Positions 3,601 through 55,286 of a stretch of 64,000 bases of DNA are shown one piece after another (positions within the stretch are counted from its first letter, which is position 1; the number at the start of each line of letters is the position of its first letter). A model generated the notes under the pieces. It was not told the origin of the DNA. It made no database searches and saw only the letters and a program-made list of their open reading frames with translations. The translations under genes and the position numbers were made by a program. This stretch comes from Raillietiella orientalis (lineage: Eukaryota), in assembly GCA_036172245.1 (NCBI GenBank), contig JAYWIR010000010.1, positions 2,542,001 through 2,606,000 of the forward strand, given 5' to 3'.

Positions 3601-4253
3601 TGTACAAATTCAACATAATAAATGAGCTGGACTTTCCAAAAGAATACTGAAATACAAAAACCGGAAAATAGGCACTTCCACCGTGGTGCATTTCCGACAG
3701 ATATGAAGCGAAATGGGAGGCCAAGAGCAGCTCACATATTCCTGGTAGCATCTGATGTCATATTCCAAAATTGCAACAAAATAATTTCGATAAGGTTATT
3801 CACAGATTCAGCAACAGTATCACTTGTAACTGAAAAATCCACTTTTCGATGTTCAAATTAGTAAACCAAAATAATCCCAAACATTTTTATTTCCTTTTAA
3901 TGGAGAAAGTCAGTTGGAATGGCATTTTTCTTACATGATCTTTCCAATGAGGTTCTCTCGCTTACACTCTAAAGGAGTAATTACACTTGTCATAATTTCC
4001 TAGTGATGACACAAACATAACTCAAAACATATGAAAATCACACTATAAAAACAAAAACAAAATACCAATCAACGTTCACATATGCACCGTAGGTTTCCAG
4101 ATATATAGGTGCATAATGTACCATAATCAAAGAGAAATATTCAAAATCCCATATCCAACAAGTAATTAGGCTCCACCTTCGTAAGCAACTTTTGGGAATA
4201 CTTATTTATTTTAATAGATCATCTTGTAGTTGAAGTAAAGGATATGGTTACAT

Positions 4254-31214: not shown

Positions 31215-38016
<6,802 letters not shown>

Positions 38017-38829
38017 GATTCTTTTACATTCACATAAAGTACTGAGATCCGATAAAAATGCTAACTTCTCCACTATATTGTTTATAAAAAAACTTTTTTC
38101 CATGGTTAACCTTGGATTTCGGTGTAAAATAACACATCCTCAAGCACGGTACAAAAAACAGAAAAAAAAAAAAAAAACAAAACTGAAGAAATAGTCACTT
38201 CACATAGTTTCAGTTGCGGTTGCAGAAAAGACCTGAAAGCAAACTATATTGGCTACAAAGGCCTTCGTAGTTCGAAACAAATTTTTGTGCCGAATAAGCA
38301 CGTATAGTCAGTTTAACCATTTGTCATCAAAATGATAAAACACTGTGCATACATGCAACAGTTCTAATGACTCATGACTGATTTTATTAATTGTACAGTA
38401 AACCAATTACATTAACAAGCACGCATATTTCAAGCTTAAACCGATATAGGGATGATTTTCATGTACAGTGATGCCAACATATATTGCATCTTGATTGCAT
38501 TCAGGATTTTAATAAAACAAATTTCTTTAAAATCAAATCTTAGATTTTCATATTGTCATAAATTGAATAATTCACATATAAATATTTATATACATATGTG
38601 TTTTTCTTTCGATTTTCAAGGTAAATTAATGGAAAGCTCGAAGTGTAACCTGCACATAAGTGTACATACTCATGAAAGAGAACTTTTGTACCAGCAAACA
38701 TTTCATTTATGCATTCATTTGTAACAAAATATAAAAAAATATGAATGAACAATAACATTTGAAGTATCTTGAAAATTATTATTAAGTTAATAAGCATTAA
38801 TAACTCATCCATTATCATAATCATACAAA

Positions 38830-41800
38830 TGGGGTTGTACCGAGAAACCTCGCCTCCCCATCAAACATTTCCGAAATGACTTCTATTAGTGTATCGTCTC
38901 CAAATTTGCCACCTCTTACCAGTCTTGTGGTAGCGTTGAGCGAGTGAGCATTTGGAGCTGGGTTTCCTCGGCACACACGTCATACAAAACTCGTCTTTGA
39001 TGTTGCCAGTCTAGTTCTCAACCTTGGGGCCACTCATGAGTCCTCCGTGATGAAACATGAGGAGATCCTCGTGGGTGTCTCATGGCAGGTGGTTCTTCCA
39101 AACTGTTGATCAAATTGCTCGCAGGTTAACTTTCGGATGCTCAAGTGGTTGTAAACAGAAGCAATGGTATAGCTACTTCTGTCTTCCTAGGGAATATATT
39201 CCCGGAGATTCTTTTTTATAATTCTGGATCACGCGATGTTGTCCTGATTCGTCTATAATTAGTATGCTCTTTGAGTAAGTCACTTTTATTATATCGATGT
39301 GAAGAAACAATCGCATTTTATGGAAGTTGTGACTAATGGTGAACTGTTTGTAGTATCGAATGGTCAATCGAGACCTTTGGTATATCCATAGACATGTCTC
39401 TCTTGGGATGAGAAGGAAGCAAGGAATTATTAGAACCAGTTCTGACTAGATTTCTTTGTTTCGAGGCATTATTTTTGTTGATGGATCCTCACCATTGCCG
39501 TTATTACTGTTTCCTCTTCTAGGTTGGGTTGATGTTCACCCACTCCAGATTTGCCGATGAAGGCTGACATCAAGCCACTCGAGTTGGGCAACTTCGAGCA
39601 GACTCTGCGAGTTGCAAATGGCCCCTCGTCGCATTCCTCGGTGAATTCCAGGAGTTGTCGCGCTACCATGGTTTGCACGGAGTGCTCCAGAGACTTCGCT
39701 CCGGTCTCGCCGTCTTCTCATAGGCGGAACAAAAGGTTCAGTCTCACCCTGGGTTTGCATTCTGGCATCTGAATCCAAGATGGATTTTGGCTACCACCGG
39801 ATAACTTTGGTCAATTCGTCCTCCTTGGGAAGCAATCACCACCTGCTTTTGTAGAATGAATCTGGGAACCTATGTTCTTGAATCCTTTTAATGAGTTTTG
39901 GTGAACAGGCGTAGATAGGAATGCAAGTACCGCTGGTAGTGAGAGATGGTCACAGTATGGAAAGCGGTCTGCACGCACTTGCGAAGTTCTGCGATTTTAA
40001 CTTCCATGGAGATGTCACCGTCGATTCGATCATGCTGTTGTTAACTCAGTCTCCCGTGCAGGTAGCTCAGGATGGCCTGTTGCTTCCCCAGGCACACACA
40101 TCTTGTCTCCGGAAATGGGAGGTTTGATGCTTTTGAGGAGCACTCACGATTTCTTCTGATTTGGTTGTCCTTCCTTTCTCATTTTCCTGTTGCTGTATTG
40201 TAGGCTGCAGAACAGATGACTCGTGTGTTTCACCCTGTCCCAGTCGGCCACTCGGCAAGTAATAGCGTTTCCCCGTTTCTCCTTGATGACTTCCTAGTGA
40301 CTGCATAGCATCTCGAAGCTGGCTGGCATGCAGATGACATCATTCTCCCTCCGAGGGTTCTCGGTTTTCACGGTGAACCGCCGTAGGGAGTGGTCCGACA
40401 GCAGAGTTTGCGTGTCTCAGAACTACTGCAAGCGATTGCAGATTTCTTTGTTGTGGAAGATGCGGTTGATCGAGTTGTGTCTCGCTGTGAGCCACAGAGT
40501 TGGAGATGACGATGTCTTTGAGTGCAACGTTGCCATGCAGATAGCTCTCTGCATTGATTTTGCACGTCGATGCTTTTTTTTTCTCAGCCAGGAGCAGGCG
40601 GTTTCTTCCGGACCAGGAAATTCGAATTATACTGCCTGACCATCTCAAGGATGGTGTGCTCAATCTCTCTCTTCACAAGAATCGCCACCCCTTTCCTCTT
40701 TTTTTCACGCTTGCTTCTGAACAGTTGGGAGTCCAGTAGTCACTCGAGCTCGAGGCAGGTCTGGTTGCCCATATAGTGGGTTTCTCGCAGGCATACAATA
40801 TGGTCACACTCGAAGGTCCGCGTGATGCATCTCCTTTTTTCTTGGTTTCACAATCCATTGACGTTACACGAATCCTGACCTGCTTATGTTTGCGTATCTG
40901 GCCGTCGATGAGAAGTTCATTGAGATTTACCTGGAGGCACTGGTCTTTTTGCGCCTCTGCTGAGACCACTTGTGGCTCCTGTTAGCAGCGCGTTCTTCCC
41001 CGACGTAGCTTTTGGTTTCCACGTAGTCCTGTGCTATCTGTGACAAAGTGGCCTTTGTATTTGGTTCTGTTTTACCCCTTTTCCACCATCTCGATGCATT
41101 TGATCACCACACAGCATCTTGCTCCTCACAGTGCGGGTGATGTTCCTCGTTGAGGACTTCCTCAAGGATGACTTCCCGTACAGAACAGAGTTGGTGCGGG
41201 ATACTCGCCCGTTTCTCACTGCTTGTACCCAGTCGCACTTCGTTACTTTTTCCATCTGCGGTTTGTATTCTTTTATTGTTACGAATTCCTTGCTGGGTAC
41301 GGCACTTTCTGGCTGCGCTTCCTTTTCCCTTGCCTCCTCTTCACTTACGAGAATTCCGTTGCTGTGGTAGCGGTCTTGTCCGGCATTACTTTTTTTTTTT
41401 CATTATTCTGCTGTATCTTCTCGAACAAAAGAGGAAAGATTCGGATCTATCACCAGTTGGTATACCTCTTGCTTTCCCTCTTTGCATGTTTTCGTAGCTT
41501 GCAGAAGCAGCACAACTGCGGCTGCGTACACGATTTGATGAAGTACCCTTGTTGGTCACAGCAGGAGCATTGTGTTCTGATGTAGGTGCCGACTCGCTGT
41601 CCAGAACTCTTGCAACCAATGCAAACTCCTGGTTGCTGCCGGTACCCTATCAGTACCTCCTGGTAGTCCCACCCCTAGGATCTTGACATCCTCATCCATC
41701 TTTACGCGGGAGATGCCCTCCTCGAGAAGACCTTGCTCACTCGGTATCTGAATCCAGCAGTTTTACTTCTCCGTTGGGACAGGTCATCCCAGACTTTCTT

Positions 41801-42160
41801 CATGCTGGTGTGCAAACTAATTCCCTCCATGTATACTGCTGTGGTGGCGGATATACCAACTATATACAGCAGACTCCCATACAGGGTGATGCCCTGTTTG
41901 ACTGTTGCGCCGATCAGTTGCTCACAACCGTGTGGATTGTGAATCCGCTGACGCACTGGATGACCTCTTGGATACTATCAAAGTTGTCGTCTTTCTTGTA
42001 CGGTGCAAAATTATGCCCTTCACACTGCTGATTTTTAGTCGCTCTCGATGTTGCAGCTCACCGCCTTAAGCTCACAACCTACTTTTTCAATGGGGATGTC
42101 CTCCCGTTGAATTACCTGAAATTCCGACTTAATAGAAGTACGCTTAAGGTTCTACGTTAC
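38830..42160 (-). mobile_element. Decayed L1/Tx1-clade (APE-type) non-LTR retrotransposon: ORF1, endonuclease, partial RT and C-terminal Cys domain
   Basis: ORF1-like AVYMEGISLHTS and knuckle relic YRQQPGVCIGCKSSG (~41590-41650). APE motifs GGD and SINRIF...LSDHSL (~40385-40460). RT N-terminus FPDSFYKS/LLPKEDELTKVIRW*PKSILDSDAR (~39770-39870). C-terminal VWKNHLP*DTHEDLLMFHHGGL...FCMTC (~38950-39110). Many stops and frameshifts; much of the RT appears deleted. Confidence 0.75.
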
Positions 42161-42990
42161 TCCCTTCATATTGGCATCTCCGGGGACTTGAGATCGACTG
42201 GGGACGGTGTTCAAAGACCCTCCTCCACATCAGACTCCAGGATCTTACTGGAGTATTTGCTACTAGCGCCAAGATCTGCGCCAACGGCGGCTCCAGGTGA
42301 GTTCTCGTCAAACCCTTCTGCGCGCACCATCGTGACCCTCCCATTCACGGAACCTGAAAAACCCTGCGTCCTCTGGAGGCAAATGTCGGAAGGCAGGAAC
42401 CGGCTCTGTCCCGGTGGTTGGGAGCAGGCTTGACGCTTGAGCGCCATCCACCTTCAGGTCCGTTGCTTTGATAGGTAAGTTGCCACACATTCCTTAGCGG
42501 ATTCTGATTTCCATGGCCACCGTTCTGCTGTTCATAGGAACCAACACCTTTCATGAGATCTGATGAGCGTCGCATCGGGAGCGGTAGTCCAACGTTTGGT
42601 TCATCCCAGCGTCAGTTCTGTTTACCAGAATCGGTCCACTGAGCGCTCATGGAACCGAAATTCCAGACTTTGGCTTTCAAGCAAGACGGACTTGTCACTC
42701 GTTTAAAGTTCAAGAATAGGTTGAAGTCATTTCAGCCCCAAGCCTCCAATCATTCGCTTTACCGGATGAGACTTCGTTCCTTTTCTGCTTCAGCGAGCGC
42801 CAGATATTCTGAGGGAAACGTAAGAGGGAACCAGCTCTACATGGTTCGTTTCATCTTTCGCATCTATACCCAGCTTCTACGACCAATTCACATTAGTATC
42901 GCAGCGGACCTCCACCAGAGCTTCATCTGGCTCCGTTTCCTCTGGTTAGGCATATTTCACAGCTCCTCCGTGTAAGACGCGTGCGGTGTT
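42160..42990 (-). pseudogene. Degenerate 28S rRNA gene fragment (about the LR3 core to expansion segment D7a)
   Basis: The reverse complement contains LSU core motifs with substitutions: GTGAAATATGCC, CTCTGGTGGAGGTCCG, CTGGTTCCCTC..GTTTCCCTCAG, ATCCGGTAAAGCGAATGATT, CTGGTAAACAGAACTG, ACGGTGGCCATGGAAATCAGAATCCGCTAAGGA, GCAGATCTTGGCGCTAGTAGCAAATA, CAGTCGATCTCAAG. No 18S, 5.8S or distal 28S seen nearby. Confidence 0.93.
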
Positions 42991-43029
42991 GCCACCATTA
43001 GTGGCACGGCTATCTGCATGGTAAGGACA

Positions 43030-46000
43030 GCTGTGTCTGACGCACATCCATAGCCTAGCCATCTGATCTTTCCCTTGATAACCTGGTAGCTTGGTATCTT
43101 TTTGATACCTGGTTTAAAAGAGTTACTTCGTCACCTCTAACCTCACACTGGTTTCATTCTCCCAAGTAATCATGGCTTTACTGACTTCGAGGCCACTCAA
43201 GTGTGATGCCTGAAGTACGGCCAACAAGTATGGCCACGCAATTGTTCGAAGACTGGAGCTGATGTTCAAGAGCGAGAGTCAAGCTCGATGCTTCCTCCCC
43301 TTCAGTGAATTCCGAGATATGGTTCTGGAAGAACCACGATAAAGAAAAGAGTTCAAGTACAAGATTTTATTTCTCTCTTTTCGCTCCCGGTGGAGTTCTG
43401 CGATCGGTTGAGAGCATTATAAGTGGGAGTGTGGAATTCCAAGGACATTTAAATTCTTGGAGAACTCGACGCCCCTTGCACAAAGGCAGAAGATGGCCGG
43501 CCCTAGATTGCAACACAGTCGAAATATTGGGAGGACCTTCTGATCCGCCGTCCAGAACAACCAGCTTCTTCAGTGACGGCAAATACAGTATGGAAAGAGC
43601 GTAAAAGGTGCAGGGAATCCGAATCCTTCAAACGACTTTTCGTGTCCTCCCATGGACATTTCCCTTTCGTGTACTTACCGGGTAAAATGGGAACTTTTAA
43701 ACAGCTGAACCCACGATGGGGGTAGTTGACAATTCTCTTAGACATTTGTTTCGTGTATCAAATTTTTTGAATACGCGCAAGCAAAATTATTACGGCTGCA
43801 TGTGCTCATGCTTCCCCTGAGGCAACAGCACAACGAGCCCAGAGGGCGTGTTGCCACCAAGCTCGTCATTCTCCTATCGTCTTGTTCAAGAATAGCTTGC
43901 ACCCCTTTGCAAGAAGAACGCTCATTTGAAGGAACAATGCGGGTACGTGCAACGAACGCGCTTCCTTGGTGGACCTCCCCTCAGAAAAGTCATTGCTTCT
44001 TGGAACGTCAACACATTCTCTCACTGCAGAAGCTGTAAAGACGCTTCAACGTTTATCCGAAAGCCTTACCACAGCTACAGCCGAATTCTGAGCGGCTGGA
44101 ACGAACGATCCTCCGAAGCAACTCCCACCAGGCTTGCTAGGATCAGAAGCTCGCTATTTGTTTCCGTTTGCTTCCTTTGATTGCAAGTTCTGATGTGCCT
44201 TCCTGGAAGGAGTATCGCTGGAAGTTGTCTTTTTGGAGGAGTTGTCATCCTCCATCTGAGAGAACTGTCAAGAGGCGCTGATTCATTCCCCATTGAAAGG
44301 AAACAGTTTTGCAATAGGATAAATGAGGAATCCAATCAAGGACAGTTAACTCAATGCAGGTTCGACTTCTCCCTGGTCTGGCATCGACAGCACATGTTTT
44401 CTATGCAGGTACGGATCCCCTCCGACCATTGGGTTTCGTACACTTTCAACTACTTTATAGTGACAAAAAAAAGGCGCAGTTAGTGGTTGCAGAGAAAAAA
44501 GAGGGTGATTTTTCCGGAAGGAACTCCAAAATGCCAGGAGAACAGCTAAAAAGGGAGAAATTGCCAGGAAACAAAAGCTGAAGAGAAGTTCTACTCAGCC
44601 TACCGCGAGCTGCGATGGGGATGAAGGTCACAACTTTGTATGCTTGTGTCCGTAAATGTCTGAAAAGGGAAAGGCATGAGAATCCATCTACCGTTTACTC
44701 GTGTGATTTGGGTAACTAGGAAGAGAGTGCACTCTGATGAGAAGAGCGGCCGCGAACTTCGTCGAGCAGCATATAGCAGGTGGTGGTGGTGGTGTCAAAG
44801 ACAGTGGTGTCGGAGGCCAAAAATGGGAACAGAAAACCCACTGCAATTTTTTCCATCCCCTGGCTCCAAAACTCCTGGCTTCGATGCATTTTCCCAGCCA
44901 ACCTACATCGCGACTTCGCGCCCATCACAGCCCCGTCAATCAGAAACAGGAATGGAAACCTTGCTCGTGAAGACATTTCTAGATGGAGAAAGGATTTCAT
45001 TTCATTTTCATTCCTAGCGACGATCAATTCATGGAAGACTGTGCCAAAAGCGTTTGCGAAGTCTATGAAGACTGCGCAGAAAAACTTCAACTGGTGACGA
45101 GCAGAGTCTATCTTGTTTGGATTACGGAGTTCTGTTCTAGCATCCCATCAAAGAACAGGAAGCCCTTTTGTTAGGTGCAGGTGCCATTACTCCGTTGTCC
45201 AATATCCAGATTCTTGTTCTGGAGGCTAAGCACTTGGCGTACAGCCTTATGCACTGTCACCAATTGATATTGGCCTCTAGTTGGAGATGTTCTCTGCTGA
45301 TGAGGGGTTCTTCCCCATAAGCACCGTCTTGGTGCACTTCCACTCTTCTGGAATTCGACGAAATTTTCTTTAAGAATTAAAGATTATCGTAAGCATCTCT
45401 GATTCTGGGTCTTTACTTCTCCAGCCAGCATATGTTATTCCATCTCCAGGAGAGAAGTTTTCGGCATTCCACAGTATTGCCGCTACCTCCTCCTGTGTAA
45501 ATACAGATATTTCTATGAGGGATGCTTTCTGGCTTCTTCCCAGCAGTATCTTTTGGGGAATCTCTTTGTCTGATTCGTGATTTCTCTCCAACTCTCTTTC
45601 AAAATGCTTTTCTATCGTCTCAACCTCCAGCCTGCAAGTTTGGTCCTGCTGACTCAGAGTTGCTCGAACTGCTCTTAATTCTGTTAATATTGTAGAGTTT
45701 CTGGATGGAGAATCTGTCGTTTGGATCAATTCTCGGTTTTCTTTCTCTGTTCCATCTTGTTTTGACACCTTAGTTTTCACGAGATGATATGTCGCGAAAA
45801 AGTCCTCCCAGCGAGACCTTTCTTCATCTGGGATCCAAAGATGGATTCTTTCTTCGTTGAATTTCGAATAATAATTCGGTTTCCATGTCTATTTTACTTT
45901 CCAGCCTCTTAATTTCCATATGTTTTGTATTTCTTCTGTTTTTCTCGTCTCTTCTGAAGGTTCTCGCTCGCTCTCCTGAGCGACTGTGGCTGGGGGATGA

Positions 46001-46760
46001 CAGCCCAAAAGGAGGGGGGAATCACACCATACTTTGTAGTCGATGGAAGCGAGCAGGTTGTAGTTGCTCCTTTTCCATGTCTTCTTTTAGTTCATCTCCG
46101 ATCAGAGGGCTTATAATTGTTTCCAAATTTCCAAAAAAAAAAACACTTACTCCCCTTCTAGTGGGGGCATCGCGGGTAATATTCATACTGTCGTGTTTTC
46201 CCTTCTCGTATCTTATTTCTCTTCTGCTGCTTCCTGTTTATTCTCTTTTAATCTTCCATCTCCAAGTATATTAATGGATGTGACTTCTCTCCGTTGGCAG
46301 GTTGCAGCCTCCCAGCTCGTTCATGCCATACTCGATGGTTTAGCAGGTCTTTTCTTGTGGAAAAGACCATGAAGCACTCCGGTCTGGTACAGACGAGTCT
46401 CGTCGACACTTGTACCGTGACCACGGGAGCAGACGAAGAGGGTTCTCAATTGCAGACGTGATGAGAAAGTATTGCTAAATGTATGTCAGCACTGCATCTT
46501 CTATATTTGTATCTTATTGATTCCTCTTCCATTCTGTGTGTGCTCATCTTGTGCTTCTTCATTTTGGGGACTTGGATTCGAACTAATGCAGCCTTAGATA
46601 TATAGTTGAATCCCACGACGCCACAGGCCATTGCGGATACCAATGGATATAGTAAAGTGACCACGTGAGCCTGCGGATCCCAGTCTTTCTTCTCCACAGT
46701 TTTCATTTCTTCTTCCCTTTCTTCTTCCGGCTCTTTTTCCAGTTGGCGCAGGTTTCTCCA
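43030..46760 (-). mobile_element. Decayed RLE-type non-LTR retrotransposon, NeSL/Utopia-like, near full length
   Basis: N-terminal LLYPLVSAMAC...H segment and C2H2 finger CTRPECFMVFSTRKDLLNHRVWH (~46325-46395). RT motifs FTQEEVAAILWNAENFSPGDGITYAGWRSKDP, IPEEWKCTKTVL...N*RPISI, QKGFLFFDGMLEQN and CAVFIDFANAFGTVFHELI. The C-terminal half is heavily eroded. Confidence 0.8.
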
Positions 46761-47620
46761 GATGGACGGTGACCTTCAGCGTAAACAAGAGGTTCCTTGC
46801 CTACTTTTCAGGGGACTAAGCATATATAGTCTTGTCAGTTTCACACAAATTCCTCTTTTCCAGTGGTATAAAAAAGCCATCTTGCAGGACCAACGAAATG
46901 CATTCTCCAAGCCGCGGCCTGGGGAATGTGAGTCCTCGCTTACAAAAACGAACTTGAAGGGAGAATAACCCGCAGGAAACGTGAACGTTGGCAACACCAA
47001 GACACTCAGTGGTCCAGTGAGCCCTAAACTCACCAACATAAGAATGCTGGAAAACCATCCGAAGGTCTTGGCGAAGATCAGGTCCAGATTAGGTAACGCC
47101 GCACTCGATCCACGGGCGATCGGGACGTTCCTGTGGAGATCCTCGCTGCTACCGAACGTTCAGGACTGCCACCTGATGTTCTACCACGGAGGCATCCTGT
47201 GCTGCACGAGGCTCCAACACTGGACCACGAACCCCGATGACAGCCGGTATCCAGGGTGCGGGTCGATCGAAGACGACCTGCACATCTACACCTGCCGAAC
47301 CCTCGTCCAGGATTGGAGGGTTGTGAAGCGGGCGTTAGAGATGGGAGGACAGGTCGACGCTGGAAATACTACGATGACTCTTCGAAGGCGAAGAAGGCGT
47401 TCCCCGCTACAACCCTACGGTGCGGGTGATTGTCGCCTTCTTCCTGAGGAGCATCCTCGTCAGAAGGACCAAGTTGACCCACGGAGATGTGTGCACTGCC
47501 CGAGACATTCTCTCAGGAACCCTGAAAAAGGAGATAGTCATCCGGGCGTGCGGAAGAGTTCCATCTTAGACTCTCCTGCATTGCCTGCGAATCGTGAACT
47601 GTGCGGCCGGACGGTGTAGT
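46760..47620 (+). mobile_element. 3' fragment of an L1/Tx1-like element (zf-RVT-like C-terminus), inverted relative to the copy at 38830-42160
   Basis: ORF 46981-47619 segment HPKV...FLWRSSLLPNVQDCHLMFYHGGIL...GCGSIEDDLHIYTC..LVQDW aligns by eye with HPKV..VWKNHLP*DTHEDLLMFHHGGL...LPQDW at 38900-39140 (-). Confidence 0.65.
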
Positions 47621-47759
47621 GCTGTACCAGTGCAGGCCGTATCAGTGATTGTGTGCTGTGTTGTTTGCGTGAATGTAATGCGATTGGTTTGTTTTTTGTT
47701 TCAATAGATCCATCCCACCGCAAGTTGGACTGGGGAAAGGGACTGCAGAAGTTACCTGA

Positions 47760-48430
47760 GTCCTGCCACTTTACGGGAAGAGGTCCTTCCTATACAAGTG
47801 ACCCATCCGATGTATCGAGGATACGTTCTGAAAATCTTGTAAGATGGAGCATTATATTCTTTCCCGTCGTTGATGACTTTTCCTGCTTCTTGTCAAGCTT
47901 GGATTGCACCAATACTTCGTCCTTTCCCGGATTCCATGGTCCCAGAAATTCCACTCGAATGCTGTTAAGGTAGCAAGCACTCCTTCGGAAGTGGATTTCA
48001 GTCAGTCTTGTATGCGCTTGCTGTTTCTATGTCTTGCTTCTTACAATGAAGCTGATGAGTACTCATAAGGACACGACAGATTCGAGATATCACCTCCCCT
48101 TCTCCTTGGAGCACTGGATCTGGTGTGGACCTTGGATCTGTTCTCGGAGTAGCCTTGGTTGACCACTACCAACTCCCAATGCTTCACAGCAACCTTCTTG
48201 ATTTTGGTCACCAGCTCTCCCTCAATCGTCTGGTAGTGGACGCATCTGCTGAAGACGGAAAAATGACGAAGGGTACTGGAGAGCAAGTATGGAAGATTGG
48301 CTCTTCGCTCAGTGATAATAGAGCAATGATTTCCAAAATTCGTGTTTCTCCTGATTTAAAGATCAGGAGAATCACGAATTGCTGAGGGAAATGAATGGCA
48401 GATGGCTGCCTTCGACTCCATTGACATTTC
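47760..48430 (-). mobile_element. Decayed C-terminal RLE endonuclease region of a NeSL/Utopia-like element
   Basis: LVTKIKKVAVKHWELVVVNQ...LSCPYE...FLGPWNPGKD resembles the IVARIKKA..WEVISENQ..PD..VTCPFE..LGSWDP pattern of this clade. Confidence 0.6.
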
Positions 48431-49249
48431 ACGGTTATTCAGTCAGCTTATTGTTAAATGCGATTCATACTTGAGATGCAATCCTTGCATGGTGTTTTAC
48501 TCTTTCCATATTGCTTAAGCAAGAAACGGTAATAACCGTTTTTACTAACGACGAACAAATTGATTCTCTCAACTCATTTTCCAAATTTTGTGTATTAACT
48601 CTCTTATAACTCTCTGCATCCTCACCTGGTTATGCCGGGACATTTATTGTAGATATTATCATACGTCTTCCAGTCTTTTTGTATTGGCAGTTCCGGAGGA
48701 TTTCTCCGCTAGGAAGCAGTCTCCAAAAGAGGTCCGCGAAGGGAAATTCGGGAAAAAGGGAATAAACAAATGAAGGTTAAACAAAAAAAGTACCGACATG
48801 TTTGGAAGGGAGGGAAGGGAAGGGATTATGGTGGCCTCTGGATCTTCTCAAGGATGCTGGCAATTTCCACCTGGTTGTTCCTCAGGTACAGTCATCTCAC
48901 CGCGATCCTTACTGAGGATGAGACGAGACACCTTCTAGGTTATTCCGAACTCTGTTGTCAGATCCTCTAGCCCCATGATTGAGCGGACGCAGCACAAAAC
49001 TGAGATCGTCGCGACAAGCGAGTTTTCTTTTCTGTCTTCTCTGTACACAATACAAAAGCTGGGAGGTGCCTTAGTCGAATAGAATAAAATCGATCTTGGT
49101 TTCTTAGAGGTAAGTTGTGACTGATAGTGGGTGTTGACGGGGAAGAAATCAAAGAGTCAATACCAAGAATCTGTTTCCTATACTGAATACTTGAAGTTCG
49201 TTTGCCAACAATTGGTGCCTAAAAATTTCTCGAATGAAACCAAATCCCT

Positions 49250-50400
49250 TCCATTTTGAACAGTGAAACGCTGCAGGACCAGGAAGAAGCGCCTCGAGGC
49301 ATGGATGCTGTAGAGATGTCAGAAATGAAGGGGCATTCTAAGGTTCATGCTTTTGGTGAGAATCCGACAGATGACACAGATCTTACATGACTCTGAGACT
49401 GATACAAGACGAGTTGTTCTTTGGAACAAAGATATTCAACACAACAAGACTCTCTCTTGCTTTTCCTTCCTTCCAGTGTTCTGGTAAGGAATTTGCTTGA
49501 TAGTGAAGGATGCAGTTCGAAACAACAACAAAAAAAAAACAGACGCACGGATTTTATTGTTAGCCAAAGGCAAAGAATGAAGCGGACTTCGATGATCATC
49601 TAGTTTTGCAATCATCTGACAACTCCTAGACATCATTATTCAAAGCCAGTTGTCGGCACAGCTACCAGTATACTTTTCCTCGAAATAGCCTTTGCTATGG
49701 TTGCAGCACAAGGGATTTGTTCTGGTGACACATTTGATGATCATTTTCTCTTTCCTTGTGGCATTGTTTTGGAAAGCACAGGCCATTTGGCAATGGCCAC
49801 CTTCAGGAATCAATGAAATGGACGAATGCCTTCTTCCAGTGAAATCCCCATTAGCGAACATGAGATCTTTTCTAATGAACTTATTCCACCTTCACTAGAT
49901 TCTCCAGCACCTTCGAGTACGAATCGAGAAAGAGGAAGGCGTTTTCTTTTGGCTTTGAAGGAGCCCTCCTACAGATTCCCTCCTTTCATATTATTTGCGT
50001 GTTATTCGTAATATTTCATTGTCACCAAAGGTTTATCCTAAACGGATTCAAAGACATCTGCGCGCTTTTGAGAATTCGTGCATCTTCATCACCCAAGGAG
50101 AGTCATAGTACCTCTTGCTCGGCCTTTACCTCAAAGGTTTTTGCTCTGTCTTCATCTTTAAGTACAAGTTTGGTGACCAACAACGTGGTTTTACGCCTTA
50201 GACCGGATATTTTAAAGCCATGCTGCCCACAGAATTCAGAGTTAATATGTATCTTCTATTTTTCACGTCTCTATGGAGAATCTGGAAATCTGTAGTCTCG
50301 TCGAAAAACGCCCCCCAGCTTAGCGTGAAAACACTTCGTAACGACTCCACGGTTTTGATTTGAAGCTCGTATTTTTCTGTAGATGATTGCTTCTTTTGAG
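49250..50400 (-). mobile_element. Further decayed NeSL/Utopia-like segment (CCHC/RLE region)
   Basis: FANGDFT (cf. HFLRNGDFTRFADW), KC...NPLCCNHSKGY (cf. ETLPHVLNHC), then IPYQN and SWS relics. Very eroded. Confidence 0.4.
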
Positions 50401-51844
50401 AATATTCATGACTACACTATGGTTGCTCAAAACACAATGGAAATTCACTCATTCTATCTGAGAGATATTGGACAAATATATTACTTTCATTTCCCGAATT
50501 GGAAAAATATCTCAAAGGAAAAATAATTGGACAAATGCCCAAAAATGTGAAGCAAAATGCAAAGAAAATTATGAGTCAAGATCCCTGTGGATACTCGTGC
50601 TAGGTGTTTTGAATAAATCGGAAAACTGCAAATGATTGCTTATTCATATCTGCAACACAGATATTTTTCAAGAACGCTATAGCGATTGCAATCAGAATAA
50701 AATATCAGTATTAATTTTAGGTTCCTTCTTAAGCTGAAGAAAGAGATCAACGTCGTTGTATTAATATGAACAAAAGCTCTAAGTTTCCGTGTTTGCATGT
50801 TGTAGATAGTTTTGGAAATATGTTGCAGTTGTAACAAGTGCGAGGGAGAGGCTGAAGAATGAAATTATTCAAATTCCATTATTTATAAAAACATTAGGAC
50901 ATTGTATACTTTTCTGATTCACACAGTGGGGGAATGAGTTGAGATCAAAAGTGTGTTAAAGGAATGCTAAAAGGGCATCAGTTGGAACACGAATTCAAAG
51001 TCTTTCGAGTACTAACAAAGGAAGGCTGCTACATGCATGAGTGATGGAATGAAACATATTTAAAAAGAGGAGAAAATTCAGATTATGTTATAAATGATAA
51101 AATAATGTAATCTCAATGCGAAGTTTGCGTGAATTTTTCAAGTTTTTCGGTATGACCATTTATGCTTTTGTCCTTGTCCGGACATATCACAGCTTTCAAT
51201 TTACGGCGTATCGAATTTCAGTGTTGGAAAACTTTTTTGGGGTCGATGAATGAAATCAAAATGCTGTTGTTAACCTCATATGCTTTGTGTTCTTACCTAA
51301 ATGCCAGATTTTCCTTGTCGTGGGGATATATTCAATTGGTCCATTTGCATGAAAGTCCTTAGCTGCTTGTGATAATGGATCCCATGGAAACCTCGTTTGC
51401 TAGAAGGCGTTGTAGTACCTAATTTGAGGAATGCTGAGAGAATTACATCAAACTAAATATGAGTTACATAAATTGCATCGTCTTACTGATTTGTTGCGCA
51501 TGCGTAAGGCTCAATTTGAACAGACCTCTTATACAGAACGCGAGATATGATGAATGACTTTGTGAAAACTCGTAGCAGTGTTTCTATCCTCAAACTCATG
51601 AAATATGTTGCAGAATATCGAATCTAGTTCACAGTGTACAAATAATTAACAGATCTCTTTAAGAAAACTGTTTTCAACTTTCACAGTCGTCTCTGTGAAT
51701 TTTCCCGTTTCTCCCATTTCCCAATGGCAATTCCGTTGACATTGCTAAGGTCGTAAACGACGGTAATTTTTTTTTGACACCACGGTGGTGTAGGAATGAG
51801 TTCGTCATCCAGAAAAGTCACTGCACAGTTATAGGATTCTCAGA

Positions 51845-53151
51845 ATGACATTCATAATATCGTGTTTCAATGGAATTCGATGCATGCCTTTTCCTGCATG
51901 GAAGAAAACAGTAACTATAGACTCTATTGATTCGAAATATTCTCTCATATTTGTCAAGGGCTTTAATTTTTGCAGAGCTTCCTCCTCCTGCAGCACTACT
52001 GCCTCGGTTACAAGGGACCTCAAAGAAGGTCCAGAACTTAAGGACTTCCTTGCTGGACATGTAAATGAAAAGCCAGAGAAAGAAAATAATCATGGGCTCG
52101 CAAGGGACTCTAGACGAATGCGTCTACCCTCTTGGCTACGAGCGAAAGTACCCGCAGGAGCGAATTATGAGAAATTGCGGGAGACATTACGAAAGCTAAA
52201 TTTACACACAGTTTGTGAAGAAGCAAAATGTCCTAACATTGGTGAATGTTGGAGTGGTGGAGAAGAAAAGGTAGCCACTGCCACTATCATGGTACTGCTT
52301 ATTCAACCATGAACTTTCTTTACAGTGTCTTCTAGTTATTAGGTGATCAGTGCACCCGTGGATGTAGATTTTGTGCTGTGCACACATCTCGCTCTCCCCC
52401 CCCTCCCGATCCAAATGAACCCTTCAATACAGCACAAGCAATTGTGACATGGGGACTGGATTATGTTGTCCTGACATCAGTAGATAGAGATGGTTAGAGT
52501 ACTGTTCTTTGAAACATAGTTTATAAGCATTTTCAGACATTGTGGATGGTGGTGCTAAACATTTTGCAAAGACTATAGCAGAGATTAAAAAACAGTAAGT
52601 GAACTGATATTGTAGTCTAATGAATATCAATTTCTAGAGGTCCACATATCTTGGTTGAATGTTTGACACCAGATTTTGGTGGAAACTTGGCAGCAATTGA
52701 AACTGTAGTAAAATCAGAACCTGATGTATTTGCCCATAACTTGGAAACAGTGAAAGAGTTACAGAAGAGTGTAAGGGATCGGCGAGCAAATTATGATCAA
52801 TCACTTACAGTGCTACACCATGCCAAACAATTAAAGCCACACCTGATAACAAAATCGTCCCTTATGCTTGGACTGGGTGAAAATGACCAGCAGATCATGA
52901 ATGCATTCAAAGATTTACGTGCAGTAGGTGTTGACTGTGTAACACTAGGCCAGTATTTGCAACCTACCCGTCGCCACATGAGTGTTAAGGAGTTTGTTAC
53001 TCCTAAACAATTTACAGAATGGGAGAAGTATGCACTTGAGCTTGGCTTTGCATATGCTGCATGTGGTCCTCTAGTACGCAGTTCATACAGAGCAGGAGAA
53101 TTGTTTGTGCGCCACTTGGTAAACAAAAGAAAGCAAAATATATCCCAATAA
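51845..53151 (+). CDS. LIAS: Mitochondrial lipoyl synthase (radical SAM)
   Basis: [98 protein letters not shown]. Short GT-AG introns; TAA at 53149-53151. Confidence 0.97.
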
Positions 53152-53196: not shown

Positions 53197-55286
53197 CTAT
53201 TCTTTCTGAGAACGTCGTTGACGGGGTGATGAACTGATATGGGGTGACACATCACTAACATTGTGCAAATCCTGAAAAGTTTCATCAACATTGTAAACTA
53301 AGAAAAAACTTGGAAACCTCTAATTCTTCTTCCGAAGTGTTATCAGAAAGCTTCTGATCACCAGAATCATTTGGCTCCTTCTCATCTTCTGCTGATTGGA
53401 ATGCCTGTTCCTCTGGAGCATCATCATTTGTGGGCTCATCTGTTTTCTTGTAGTCGGCTTCAGATTTGCTCACCTACAAGAGACATCTTCACAAACTTAG
53501 ATGGTAACTAGTCATCACCTTTTTAGATGGGGAGCAGCAGAAGGTGAACAAGAGAACTAAAGGTAATCCAATTAAGACAACATAGATGGCCCATATCCAT
53601 GGATAGCGATTGGTGAAGCGAACAATGCGTTTCCACCAAGATACCTAAAATAAAGAATCAATCCTTCAATCTTTGAATTTTGCAGTTGCACAAAGCAGAC
53701 ATGCATGTCATACCTTAATATATTTCACAATATATCAAGATATTTTGTTCACATATAATGAGGGCAATGCTCACCGTTTCTCCTTCATGCTGTTCCAGTT
53801 TAAGATCATATGTGCTATGAAGCCATTCATCAGCATCTTTTTCATTATCAGACATGAAAACATTATCAAAGTATACACTATCTGACATGGACCATAATTC
53901 AAATCCTATAGCTCCCTACCAGACAGCTATAATCATTAATTTGATCCAAAACACTTACAATGGGAAGCATTTTGAAAGGATTTTCATCATAAAAATAATC
54001 AGGATTAGGTATACGCCTTGGATGCCACTCCCCACGGTATTTAGGATTAGGAATCAATGGAGGTGTCCATTTTTCTTTATATAAGGGATTCTCTTTCATT
54101 GGAGCTTTCCAGGGTCCACATCCTGGTGCATTTGCACATTTAGGATTAGGGATTAGTGGTGGCTCATATTCTCCATCCATGTCAGGATCCCTTGAATTCC
54201 ACACGTACAAAACTGAGTTTTCAGTTGTACATCCTTACCAATCTTCTGGTTGCACAGCATTAGTGTCTGACACCATTTCTGATTCACTTTCCAGCCAGCC
54301 AGCAGGCATTTTTGCATCTAAATCTGGTATCATTCTTGGTTGGGTTTCATCCCAATCATCAGGACGCTTAGCTTCAGGATCAGGGATATGATCACGATCA
54401 TCCCAATCACTTGGTTTAGTATCTGAAGGATCATCAATCTCCTTAGGAGGATTCACTGGCGGATCCATATCTTTTAAAAGGCTTCCAGATGCAACCACTT
54501 CTTTATCTATCCATACAGTGTATGTATTATCTGGACTAACAACTAGCCGAAGAACATGAGGCTTATTATCTCTAACTATCTCCTCAATGTTAGAATTTAT
54601 CCGGGCTCGTTTCTCTGATATGGAACCATTTATTGGATTCACATGCCTCATAATGAAATATAACTATCAACTAGTTTAACTGAGAGTTCTGAATCTTAAT
54701 GCTTACTTTATGGTCATTGCCGCATTTGTCTGGACCAAACATAATGGTATATGGTGTGCCTTCATGAAAGTTTGAAGGATCAAACTTGGGATCATAGGTT
54801 AAGAGCTTCAGGTAGGCTCCACCACATTCTTGTCCACCTTGAAAGCTAACTTCATATTGAACTACAAGAGGCTTATTATTATTAAAGTGAAAGGGTTGTT
54901 TCAAAATTCGACTAATTGCAAAATGTTTTGCACGGGATCTCATGACTAGACCCAAATCTCCAGAAAGAGGATATTTTTGTAAAGGTTCAAGTTTCCAAGT
55001 GCCATCATAAAGTGATAATGAATCATCAGCTCCTCTCCTCTGGGCTTTTGATAAATGCCAGTTCTGCCACACTTGTGATTCATCATCAAAGGATTCTGCT
55101 ATGAAGGCATTTGCAGATTTAGGTGTTCTGTAAAACACTTCTGGAATTTTCTTGTTGTCCTATTGGTATGATATTAAGTTACTGTTACTTCAACACTTGC
55201 TTGTTTACCTCTTTTGCATCTTCTCCATGTATCCTGTTTTCCCAGATGATACCAACTAGTAATAACCAAACATAGCACTGCCGCAT
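53197..55286 (-). CDS. CANX: Calnexin
   Basis: Signal peptide from ATG 55286 ([14 protein letters not shown]). [35 protein letters not shown]-domain repeats [61 protein letters not shown]; acidic tail ending [10 protein letters not shown]. Confidence 0.97.

Follow-up and report, generated by a model that had tools for sequence, protein, structure and literature searches.

A degenerate 28S rRNA fragment and a decayed non-LTR retrotransposon, here called element Y, share the minus strand of a 64,000-nucleotide stretch of the Raillietiella orientalis genome (the window), with the 28S fragment lying 5' of Y, whose features run from 41974 down to 38900. The most economical reading of this one locus, to which we assign a probability of about 0.4, is an old chimeric retrocopy generated in a single event of target-primed reverse transcription, as in one of the two models offered by the initial annotation. 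Starting at the 3' end of the RNA of Y, a LINE, the element's reverse transcriptase would have proceeded as far as the 5' end or its vicinity before switching template onto 28S rRNA, of which some 0.85 kb or more would have been copied, beginning in D7a and finishing at the D2/D3 border; the cDNA would then have been joined to the chromosome. The acceptor end would lie in D7a, and in a host with a hidden break mature 28S-alpha would offer its free 3' terminus as a natural acceptor. Decay as neutral DNA would have followed for the 28S sequence and Y alike, among the other dead elements piled up in a region flanked by genes. We infer each of the three components of this reading, namely the joint arrival of the 28S sequence and Y, the switch at a natural RNA end and the hidden break of the host. 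A stronger proposal sees the junction as the 28S hidden break fossilised in DNA: having reached the end of its own RNA, the LINE reverse transcriptase would have made an end-to-end jump to the free 3' terminus of 28S-alpha and so have written the in vivo cleavage site into the genome. This proposal is tentative and seems to us somewhat unlikely.

The 28S part was delimited with Rfam, which returned a single match to eukaryotic LSU rRNA (RF02543) at 42185-43022 of the window, on the minus strand, with 358.2 bits and an E value of 7e-94. About 0.8 kb of degenerate minus-strand 28S had been described before, and this was confirmed with a length of 838 bases (~0.84 kb), the match extending slightly past the earlier upper bound of 42990. 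Its landmarks were as follows:

42185..43022, minus strand: degenerate 28S (LSU) fragment (Rfam RF02543), spanning model positions ~665 (immediately past the 3' side of D2) to ~1536-1549 (conserved block on the 5' edge of D7a).
42187..42229, minus strand: last 28S landmarks, i.e. a relic of the upstream hidden-break marker (TGTGGAGGAGGGTC..; marker as in PMC6925239), a shortened hairpin and then the block CAGTCGATCTCAAG.

The degeneracy of the fragment was apparent in the Rfam alignment as many non-canonical pairs and small indels within universally conserved blocks, and about 62 of the 91 columns at model positions 867-957 were identical when counted by eye. The alignment was trusted from model position 665 to ~1536-1549, since the reported end at 1888 arises from a local-end jump in the structure model and not from sequence. 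By eye, the likeness possibly begins about 20 bases further upstream, near 43045; Rfam gave no LSU match at E<=10 in 43023-43700. An inverted 28S piece suspected by eye at ~43330-43380 was dropped, as Rfam detected nothing there at E<=10. Elsewhere in the 64 kb no LSU, SSU or 5.8S match was obtained at E<=1, the window contained no second copy of the 28S fragment or of its junction with the element, and a blastn search of 38500-43200 against the window yielded the self match only.

The 28S likeness stops right after a conserved AGUCGAUCCUAAG-type block, the last recognisable block being CAGTCGATCTCAAG at 42200-42187, which by eye resembles uAGUCGgUCCUAAG of the model. When downstream sequence was included, the LSU score decreased from 91.5 bits (42185-42460) to 76.9 (42050-42460) and 64.5 (41850-42460), a cost of 14.6 and 27 bits. 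Therefore, the next conserved 28S block is truly absent, which is more than a mere failure to align. A continuation of the 28S past D7a, with a possible relic of the second marker at 42166-42161 or 42131-42110, was rejected because of this fall in score once the region was added. In agreement with the earlier claim that neither the downstream conserved block nor any later 28S follows, there was no LSU match in 41600-42184 at E<=10, and the downstream hidden-break marker of PMC6925239 (CGAAAGGGAAT...) was not found, the best candidate in 42000-42190 being a 6-base exact word. A 20-mer marker test was too weak for use, as the true relic of the upstream marker scored 10 in it, no better than 23 of ~12,800 windows with scores of at least 10. 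As the likeness stops after the upstream block and the downstream marker was not found, the end of the 28S fragment falls between the pair of markers on either side of the protostome hidden break, at a resolution of ~60 bases within which further D7a sequence is possible.

These markers (PMC6925239) are ~100-120 bases apart in a molecule of at least 3,400 bases, and by our own estimate a random end would fall between them with a chance of ~3%. Table 1 of the same source gives the D7a of break-bearing phyla as more AU-rich than the remaining 28S. The hidden break removes a short piece of D7a, which is given in PMC6884822 as 42 bases in Dugesia japonica and as 4 to 350 among species. The one Schmidtea mediterranea probe compared by eye, which covers the start of D7a, showed no resemblance to the window there. 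The hidden break in D7a of protostome 28S is a feature of the RNA, whereas the present case is a junction in DNA, and no link between the two was found in a literature search at the level of titles and abstract openings.

Element Y is probably a long-dead non-LTR retrotransposon, as suggested by an array of zinc knuckles, by the tblastx likeness of its 3' part to a nearby open reading frame and by motifs recognised by eye. Its putative parts, together with that reading frame (neighbour Z), were:

41450..41974, minus strand: ORF1 remnant, a 175-codon phase with 3 stops that ends in three tandem CCHC-type zinc knuckles (41623-41471).
41348..41401, minus strand: run of 11 A followed by ATG (MPDKTATT..), a possible ORF1/ORF2 boundary, interpreted by eye only.
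40384..40936, minus strand: apurinic-endonuclease-like (APE-like) remnant in three phases, by eye against APE consensus motifs.
40936-40901 (LQVNLNELLIDG) and 40805-40776 (DHIVCLRETH), minus strand: APE-like motifs 1-2, by eye.
40691-40656 (GVAILVKREIEH), 40506-40441 (..NRIFHNKEI) and 40404-40384 (LLSDHSL), minus strand: APE-like motifs 3-5, by eye.
39752..39868, minus strand: putative start of the reverse-transcriptase domain (FPDSFYKSRW.LLPKEDELTKVIRW.PKSILDSDARM), from a weak match to protein P0001 and otherwise by eye.
38900..39121, minus strand: C-terminal-type region of ORF2, with CxxC at 38986-38975, from its tblastx likeness to the ORF at 46969-47619 (+).
46969..47619, plus strand: neighbour Z, an intact 216-codon ORF that resembles a LINE ORF2 C-terminal region and is related to the 3' part of Y.

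The triple CX2CX4HX4C array at 41471-41623 was the sole match with at least 8 of the 12 key residues in the six frames of the window, and none of 30 shuffled windows contained one; each knuckle has one or two of its key residues altered. The tblastx match between 38900-39121 and the ORF at 46969-47619 had an E value of 1.4e-4 window-wide and of 9e-7 pairwise. The match of the reverse-transcriptase start to residues 90-126 of P0001 was weak and ungapped (17.7 bits, E 6.2, in a small search space), and the remainder of this domain was unrecognisable, with AT-rich sequence at 39180-39480. In the GC profile, the GC-rich sequence of Y turns AT-rich near 38830. The motifs of Y are scattered over three phases, and ORF1-type as well as C-terminal-type parts are retained, hence Y is no short 5'-truncated scrap.

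Domain and homology searches gave no further hold on Y. No retroelement family of Pfam was detected in 16 single ORFs or in three read-through frames, nor at E<=10 in five pieces (three of them in the intended frame), and neither Exo_endo_phos nor RVT_1 matched on Y. The three frames and the ORF1 remnant had no relevant match in PDB, and when the main frame was run with HMMER against all 1.84 billion representatives, 0 matches were obtained at E<=0.001. The initial annotation had named this element a Tx1/L1-like retrotransposon. Its retrotransposon nature is consistent with the knuckle array, the tblastx likeness and the APE and reverse-transcriptase motifs seen by eye, without a Pfam, PDB or HMMER match, and the Tx1/L1 label has one weak lead, in the zf-RVT clusters matched by Z.

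A stretch of uncertain origin separates the two parts:

41975..42184, minus strand: junction stretch with no LSU likeness and no poly(A), possibly the D7a 5' arm, non-templated or spacer DNA, or the 5' UTR of the element.

These ~210 bases (42184-41975), or up to ~560 if counted to the first knuckle, could be attributed neither to 28S nor to the element by any test. A fusion with almost no spacer had been proposed, in which the 28S would pass directly into ORF1-like sequence (NLKRTSIKSEF..EDIPIEKV). This found no support, since the corresponding frame of 38 codons (42151-42038) had no homologue, the main phase of the element contains 6 stops in ~75 codons from 42199 to 41975, and across 41650-42184 the stop counts of the three frames are 11, 8 and 9 per ~178 codons, no frame being stop-poor. 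There is no poly(A) between the 28S part and the element. No target-site duplication was found, as 43 of 200 shuffles scored at least as high as the best match between the two flanks (10.0); with a locus this old and a neighbouring element, X, upstream, such a duplication has likely been lost.

The shared orientation, the end of the 28S inside the break window and the lack of poly(A) between the parts are what favour a single chimeric retrocopy. As rRNA lacks poly(A) and no A-tail follows the fragment, an independent LINE-mediated retrocopy of the 28S would have required a template switch anyway. Moreover, the substitutions and indels of the 28S fragment and the dispersal of the Y motifs over three phases indicate that both are old, as co-insertion predicts. 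Against the same reading we count the ~210 to ~560 bases that belong to neither part, the missing target-site duplication, and an identity of Y that received no support from Pfam, PDB, the 1.84 billion proteins or word-indexed searches. A pile of dead elements is also a place where chance neighbours are common, and the upstream flank is occupied by dead element X, so that the original 5' junction has possibly been lost. The features of X were:

44339..45460, minus strand: neighbour X, a non-LTR relic putatively of the R2 superclade (restriction-like-endonuclease type), upstream of the 28S piece and on the same strand.
45450-45016 and 44404-44339, minus strand: start of the reverse transcriptase and C-terminal CCHC-like motif of X, respectively, from PDB R2 proteins and P0001.

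The reverse transcriptase of X matched R2 proteins of PDB with E values of 3.2e-4 and 4.6e-4, which were lost when a longer query was used, and P0001, itself R2-like, aligned to X with an E value of 1.4e-4, the CCHC motif being identical at 11 of 24 positions (E 0.83). No endonuclease match was detected for X. In word-indexed searches against longer proteins, none of 1765 candidates reached E<=0.01, and among the 683 candidates for the reverse-transcriptase region the best was P0001 alone, at E 1.3. X ends somewhere upstream of the 28S fragment, and its position with respect to that fragment does not correspond to the canonical R2 site. The suggestion that X is younger than the 28S fragment was dropped, as it was unsupported by the stop counts.

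Other histories could have produced the same arrangement. It is unlikely, in our view, that the 28S scrap and the LINE landed adjacently at different times in a region that collects elements. The scrap could then descend from a piece of rDNA captured at a break, or from rRNA that another element had retrocopied, and its end in D7a could be a coincidence or the point at which alignment stops in a variable segment. The region from 39 to 50 kb, made of unrelated dead elements on both strands, would provide the setting, and the unattributed sequence at the junction, the lack of a detected target-site duplication and the small minority that LINE chimeras represent among genomic rRNA fragments in one primate survey (18 loci; 10.1101/2025.02.02.635956) all point in this direction. 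However, such an origin needs three coincidences, i.e. the same strand, the 5' side of Y facing the fragment and an end within ~100 of at least 3,400 bases, and an alignment stop is at odds with the true absence of the next 28S block, as measured by the losses of 14.6 and 27 bits. We consider it very improbable that a composite element with the 28S piece as an integral component spread as a unit, the piece being either the leader of Y or the 3' region of X. Precedents exist in 28S-derived SINEs and in R2 families with 28S-like 3' UTRs, seven of which are given in section 13 of PMC5035012, and X does end somewhere upstream of the fragment, but these R2 tails are short and match the region beside the R2 site, not positions 665-1540, and neither the fragment nor the junction recurs in the window.

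It is quite unlikely that the locus derives from a master copy of the element that resided in a 28S gene, within the AU-rich loop of D7a, and was transcribed together with the 28S upstream of it. Such a copy would have arisen either by a chance preference of the endonuclease or by true site specificity, and the present locus would be either a retrocopy of the read-through RNA (5' transduction) or an orphan at the DNA level. Clades with a CCHC-bearing ORF1 and an AP endonuclease have many target-specific families among them, and the orientation is that of co-transcribed R elements, both of which speak for this origin. An AU-rich D7a (PMC6925239) would suit an AP-type endonuclease, and neighbour X probably falls into the R2 superclade, the members of which mostly target rDNA (PMC3636483). 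On the other hand, 28S was found on one side of Y only, as its 3' part is followed near 38830 by AT-rich DNA and, ~700 bases beyond, by a kinase exon (identity by eye); no SSU or 5.8S match was present in the 64 kb, protein-coding exons lie on both sides, and X is off the canonical R2 site relative to the fragment. Furthermore, no R element was found reported at D7a in the passages covered of PMC5035012, PMC4640811 and PMC3636483. The second model of the initial annotation, a D7a-specific family co-transcribed by Pol I, is therefore disfavoured, as the C-terminal region of Y (38900-39121) gives way to AT-rich DNA and the kinase exon with no 28S-beta, and no other rDNA is present.

The single chimeric retrocopy would be of a known kind, since 28S/LINE-1 chimeras are already described in primates, where 18 of them, 83% in sense orientation, were ascribed to template switching or RNA ligation (10.1101/2025.02.02.635956). 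As here, the LINE of those chimeras has the 28S segment on its 5' side, and this segment usually shares the LINE's orientation and lacks a poly(A) of its own. In contrast, their 28S segments are of 50-482 bases and often start near human 28S position 3636, whereas the present one has at least 838 bases and ends in D7a; their LINE is L1, whereas Y is of another LINE family with CCHC knuckles; and their origin in single events was shown by multi-species alignment, whereas here it is proposed from one locus. According to the legend of supplementary figure 2G in that source, the natural 28S 3' end is a frequent starting point of genomic 28S insertions, which fits natural RNA ends as acceptors. Chimeras of LINEs with small structural RNAs, such as U6/LINE-1, likewise carry the RNA in sense on the 5' side, connected to the LINE through its natural 3' end (10.1101/2025.02.02.635956), but U6 is full-length and small and its L1 is usually 5'-truncated, whereas a long, 5'-truncated rRNA would be joined here to an element that keeps ORF1-type sequence. 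R1, R2, R4, R5, R8, R9 and planarian LIN9/24/26 also have the orientation of the 28S, with 28S directly upstream of the 5' end (PMC5035012, PMC4640811, PMC3636483); however, these elements reside inside rDNA units at one fixed site with 28S on both sides, whereas no 28S follows Y and its surroundings are protein-coding.

If a single event at the natural 28S-alpha end took place, rRNA/LINE chimeras would extend from primate L1 to an invertebrate-type LINE, and the locus would document, as DNA rarely does, a site of RNA processing; this would be of use for the cheap mapping of hidden breaks and for the study of template jumping in vivo. If such joins recur, the sites and the history of hidden breaks could be read from genome sequence alone, and they would show that LINE enzymes accept cleaved rRNA halves as templates in the germ line. 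At present, with one decayed locus, the value is that of a lead for a genome-wide search and not of a result.

The block around the junction stands out by its composition, with a GC content of 0.43-0.49 over 40-50 kb compared to 0.28-0.37 around it. Searches of the six frames of 43000-50000 revealed no retroelement family of Pfam. Neighbour Z had no Pfam match either, and none of 779 candidates from the word-indexed search against longer proteins reached E<=0.001. In the ESM Atlas, 7 of its 30 matches were zf-RVT clusters, in which the family was assigned on 25% of the members with a recognition below the usual level. A calreticulin-family exon is also present in the window.

The Rfam search of the 64-kb window returned a single ribosomal match, to eukaryotic LSU rRNA, at 42185-43022 on the minus strand (358.2 bits), and no SSU, 5.8S or second LSU match at E<=1 was detected elsewhere in it. 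This 28S fragment is a pseudogene. In the Rfam alignment, substitutions and indels of one or two bases were found even in blocks that are invariant among eukaryotes, and about 62 of the 91 columns in the block at model positions 867-957 were counted by eye as identical. Its first aligned model position, 665, is immediately 3' of the D2 expansion segment. Judged by eye, LSU-like sequence may start some 20 bases further upstream, and no LSU likeness at E<=10 was found by Rfam on either strand of 43023-43700. The 5' edge of the fragment (43009-43024) also shows a 16-base inverted match (94%) to 40530-40545, inside the dead element Y that lies 3' of the fragment on the same strand, which by a rough estimate is about chance level for 10 kb.

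To test whether the 28S continues, three LSU runs with differing 3' limits were carried out. The scores were 91.5 bits for 42185-42460, 76.9 bits for 42050-42460 and 64.5 bits for 41850-42460, so the extra downstream sequence lowers the LSU score, and 41600-42184 scanned alone gave no LSU match at E<=10. The tabulated model end, 1888, reflects the covariance model jumping to a local end and not the true alignment end; at residue level, confidence in the alignment extends no further than about model position 1505-1536. On visual inspection, CAGTCGATCTCAAG (42200-42187) in the window corresponds to the conserved 28S block uAGUCGgUCCUAAG, and the hairpin preceding it is small and shortened. According to Natsidis et al. 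(PMC6925239), the protostome hidden-break region, where 28S is cleaved within D7a into alpha and beta, is delimited by two conserved 20-mers, with a mean spacing of about 120 bases in species with the break. The first marker has left a relic at about 42229-42210. The second was not detectable in 42000-42190 (best match, a 6-base word) by a 20-mer test of low power, as the true first marker itself does not outscore 23 of about 12,800 windows. Therefore, the score runs, the scan of 41600-42184 and the first-marker relic bear out the initial annotation in that the 28S fragment ends inside the hidden-break window, and up to about 60 bases of unalignable D7a beyond the detected end may still be 28S.

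The fragment lies in a GC-richer block (39000-50000) composed of several dead elements in both orientations, with a GC content of 0.43-0.49 over 40-50 kb compared to 0.28-0.37 around it. A kinase gene borders this block on one side and a lipoyl-synthase-like gene on the other, with protein-coding exons found on both flanks. The neighbouring features are as follows:

37828-38139, minus strand: kinase exon, identified by eye, about 700 bases beyond Y
44339-45460, minus strand: X, upstream of the 28S fragment, a probable R2-superclade relic with an RT start and a C-terminal CCHC-like motif
46969-47619, plus strand: Z, an intact ORF of 216 codons, like the C-terminal zinc-binding region of LINE ORF2 and akin to the 3' part of Y
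51800-53151: lipoyl-synthase-like exons, identified by eye
54671-55159: calreticulin-family exon

Element Y was recognised neither by Pfam, in ORFs and read-through frames, nor in the PDB, and a full HMMER pass of its main frame gave no match at E<=0.001 among 1.84 billion representative proteins. Three tandem CX2CX4HX4C-type knuckles are present at 41623-41471 (minus strand), with 8 of the 12 key residues kept; the array is the sole one across the six frames of the window, and none of 30 shuffled windows has one. On translation, the knuckles end a 175-codon phase holding three stops. The 3' part of Y (38900-39121) resembles Z, on the opposite strand, with tblastx E values of 1.4e-4 window-wide and 9e-7 pairwise. 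Z has no Pfam match and no homologue among longer proteins, and it resembles ESM Atlas clusters carrying zf-RVT (7 of 30 matches, in which 25% of members have the family), the zf-RVT recognition for Z being 2084, under the usual 2300. Between the knuckles and the 3' part, motifs that we take by eye to be AP-endonuclease-like and RT-start-like follow in the correct order; the best objective figure for them is a weak match of the Y RT start to P0001, an R2-like database protein (17.7 bits, E 6.2). These sequence features lead us to regard Y as a non-LTR element that has a gag-like ORF1, an AP endonuclease and an RT, the last mostly lost. Its earlier assignment as Tx1/L1-like was not established, the zf-RVT likeness being the sole lead to a clade. 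Y also contains two A runs (41391-41401 and 40567-40575, minus strand), separated by 816 bases, whose flanks show weak similarity; an ATG follows the former, which may be the boundary between ORF1 and ORF2.

The junction had been described as a direct fusion with almost no spacer, in which the 28S passes into an ORF1-like frame (NLKRTSIKSEF..EDIPIEKV, 42151-42038). No homologue of this frame was found, and it is not supported as ORF1. The main Y phase contains 6 stops between 42199 and 41975 (about 75 codons), and in 41650-42184 the three frames hold 11, 8 and 9 stops over about 178 codons each, in contrast to 4, 1 and 4 over 166 codons in 40100-40599. As all frames are stop-rich and the proposed one is without a homologue, about 210 bases, or up to about 560 to the first knuckle, were assigned to neither part, and the direct fusion is thus not established. 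This stretch could be the D7a 5' arm, extra bases, spacer DNA or the 5' UTR of Y. The sequence has no A-tail after the 28S part, and a comparison of the two outer flanks showed no target-site duplication (best score 10.0, reached by 43 of 200 shuffles).

The 28S observation is real and neatly placed, and a single-event 28S/LINE chimera is the best reading of the locus, with a probability of roughly 0.4. The mechanism proposed in the initial annotation, a chimeric retrocopy joined at the 28S-alpha 3' end, is plausible, and this kind of mechanism is already known. As rRNA is without poly(A), a LINE-made rRNA copy requires a template switch, and non-LTR enzymes reportedly jump from one template, at its 5' end, onto the 3' end of a second one, as is said of R2 in the work of Bibillo and Eickbush. 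A switch of the LINE enzyme onto rRNA would produce 5'-rRNA-LINE-3' on one strand, and in a host with the hidden break the 28S-alpha 3' end would be a second natural RNA end. According to a preprint (10.1101/2025.02.02.635956), primates have 18 28S/LINE-1 chimera loci (50-482 bases, 83% sense), and genomic 28S copies often begin at the natural 28S 3' end. The 5'-rRNA-LINE-3' arrangement on the same strand, expected for such chimeras, is also found at the present locus. A limited literature search returned no report that connects retroelement junctions with the hidden break.

Chance adjacency of a 28S scrap and a LINE is plausible in such a pile of dead elements, but it requires the same strand, the 5' side of Y facing the fragment and an end within about 100 of at least 3,400 bases, and we consider it somewhat unlikely. 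Residence in rDNA is an unlikely explanation, either as the D7a-specific family co-transcribed in rDNA that had been suggested or in a softer version, in which a master copy resided in the AU-rich loop of D7a in some rDNA unit and its read-through RNA was retrocopied here. For the specific family, 28S would have to lie on either side of Y within an rDNA setting; Rfam found neither in the 64-kb window, and this version is unlikely. Furthermore, the C-terminal-type region of Y is retained and directly borders AT-rich host DNA; the 3' flank of Y is therefore probably original, which also argues against that family. R2 families with 28S-like 3' UTRs do exist (PMC5035012) and would be a precedent for a composite element with 28S as a built-in part; however, those tails are short and derived from a different 28S region than the present fragment, making this explanation highly improbable.

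Regarding X, its RT start matched solved R2 proteins in the PDB (E 3.2e-4 and 4.6e-4), the other two of the four listed matches being antibodies (E about 0.7-1), and the R2 match was lost when the query was lengthened. The only database relative found for X was P0001, whose R2-like nature is indicated by RVT_1 (126 bits) and by R2 structures (E 1e-48). This protein aligns to X at 45399-45016 with an E value of 1.4e-4, and to its C-terminal CCHC motif (44404-44339) with an E value of 0.83. X lies outside any rDNA unit, away from the R2 site; R2 families lacking target specificity are known in flatworms (PMC5035012). Beside the kinase exon, an A-rich run of 30 bases (79% A) is present at 38153-38182 on the plus strand, which is a T run on the minus strand.
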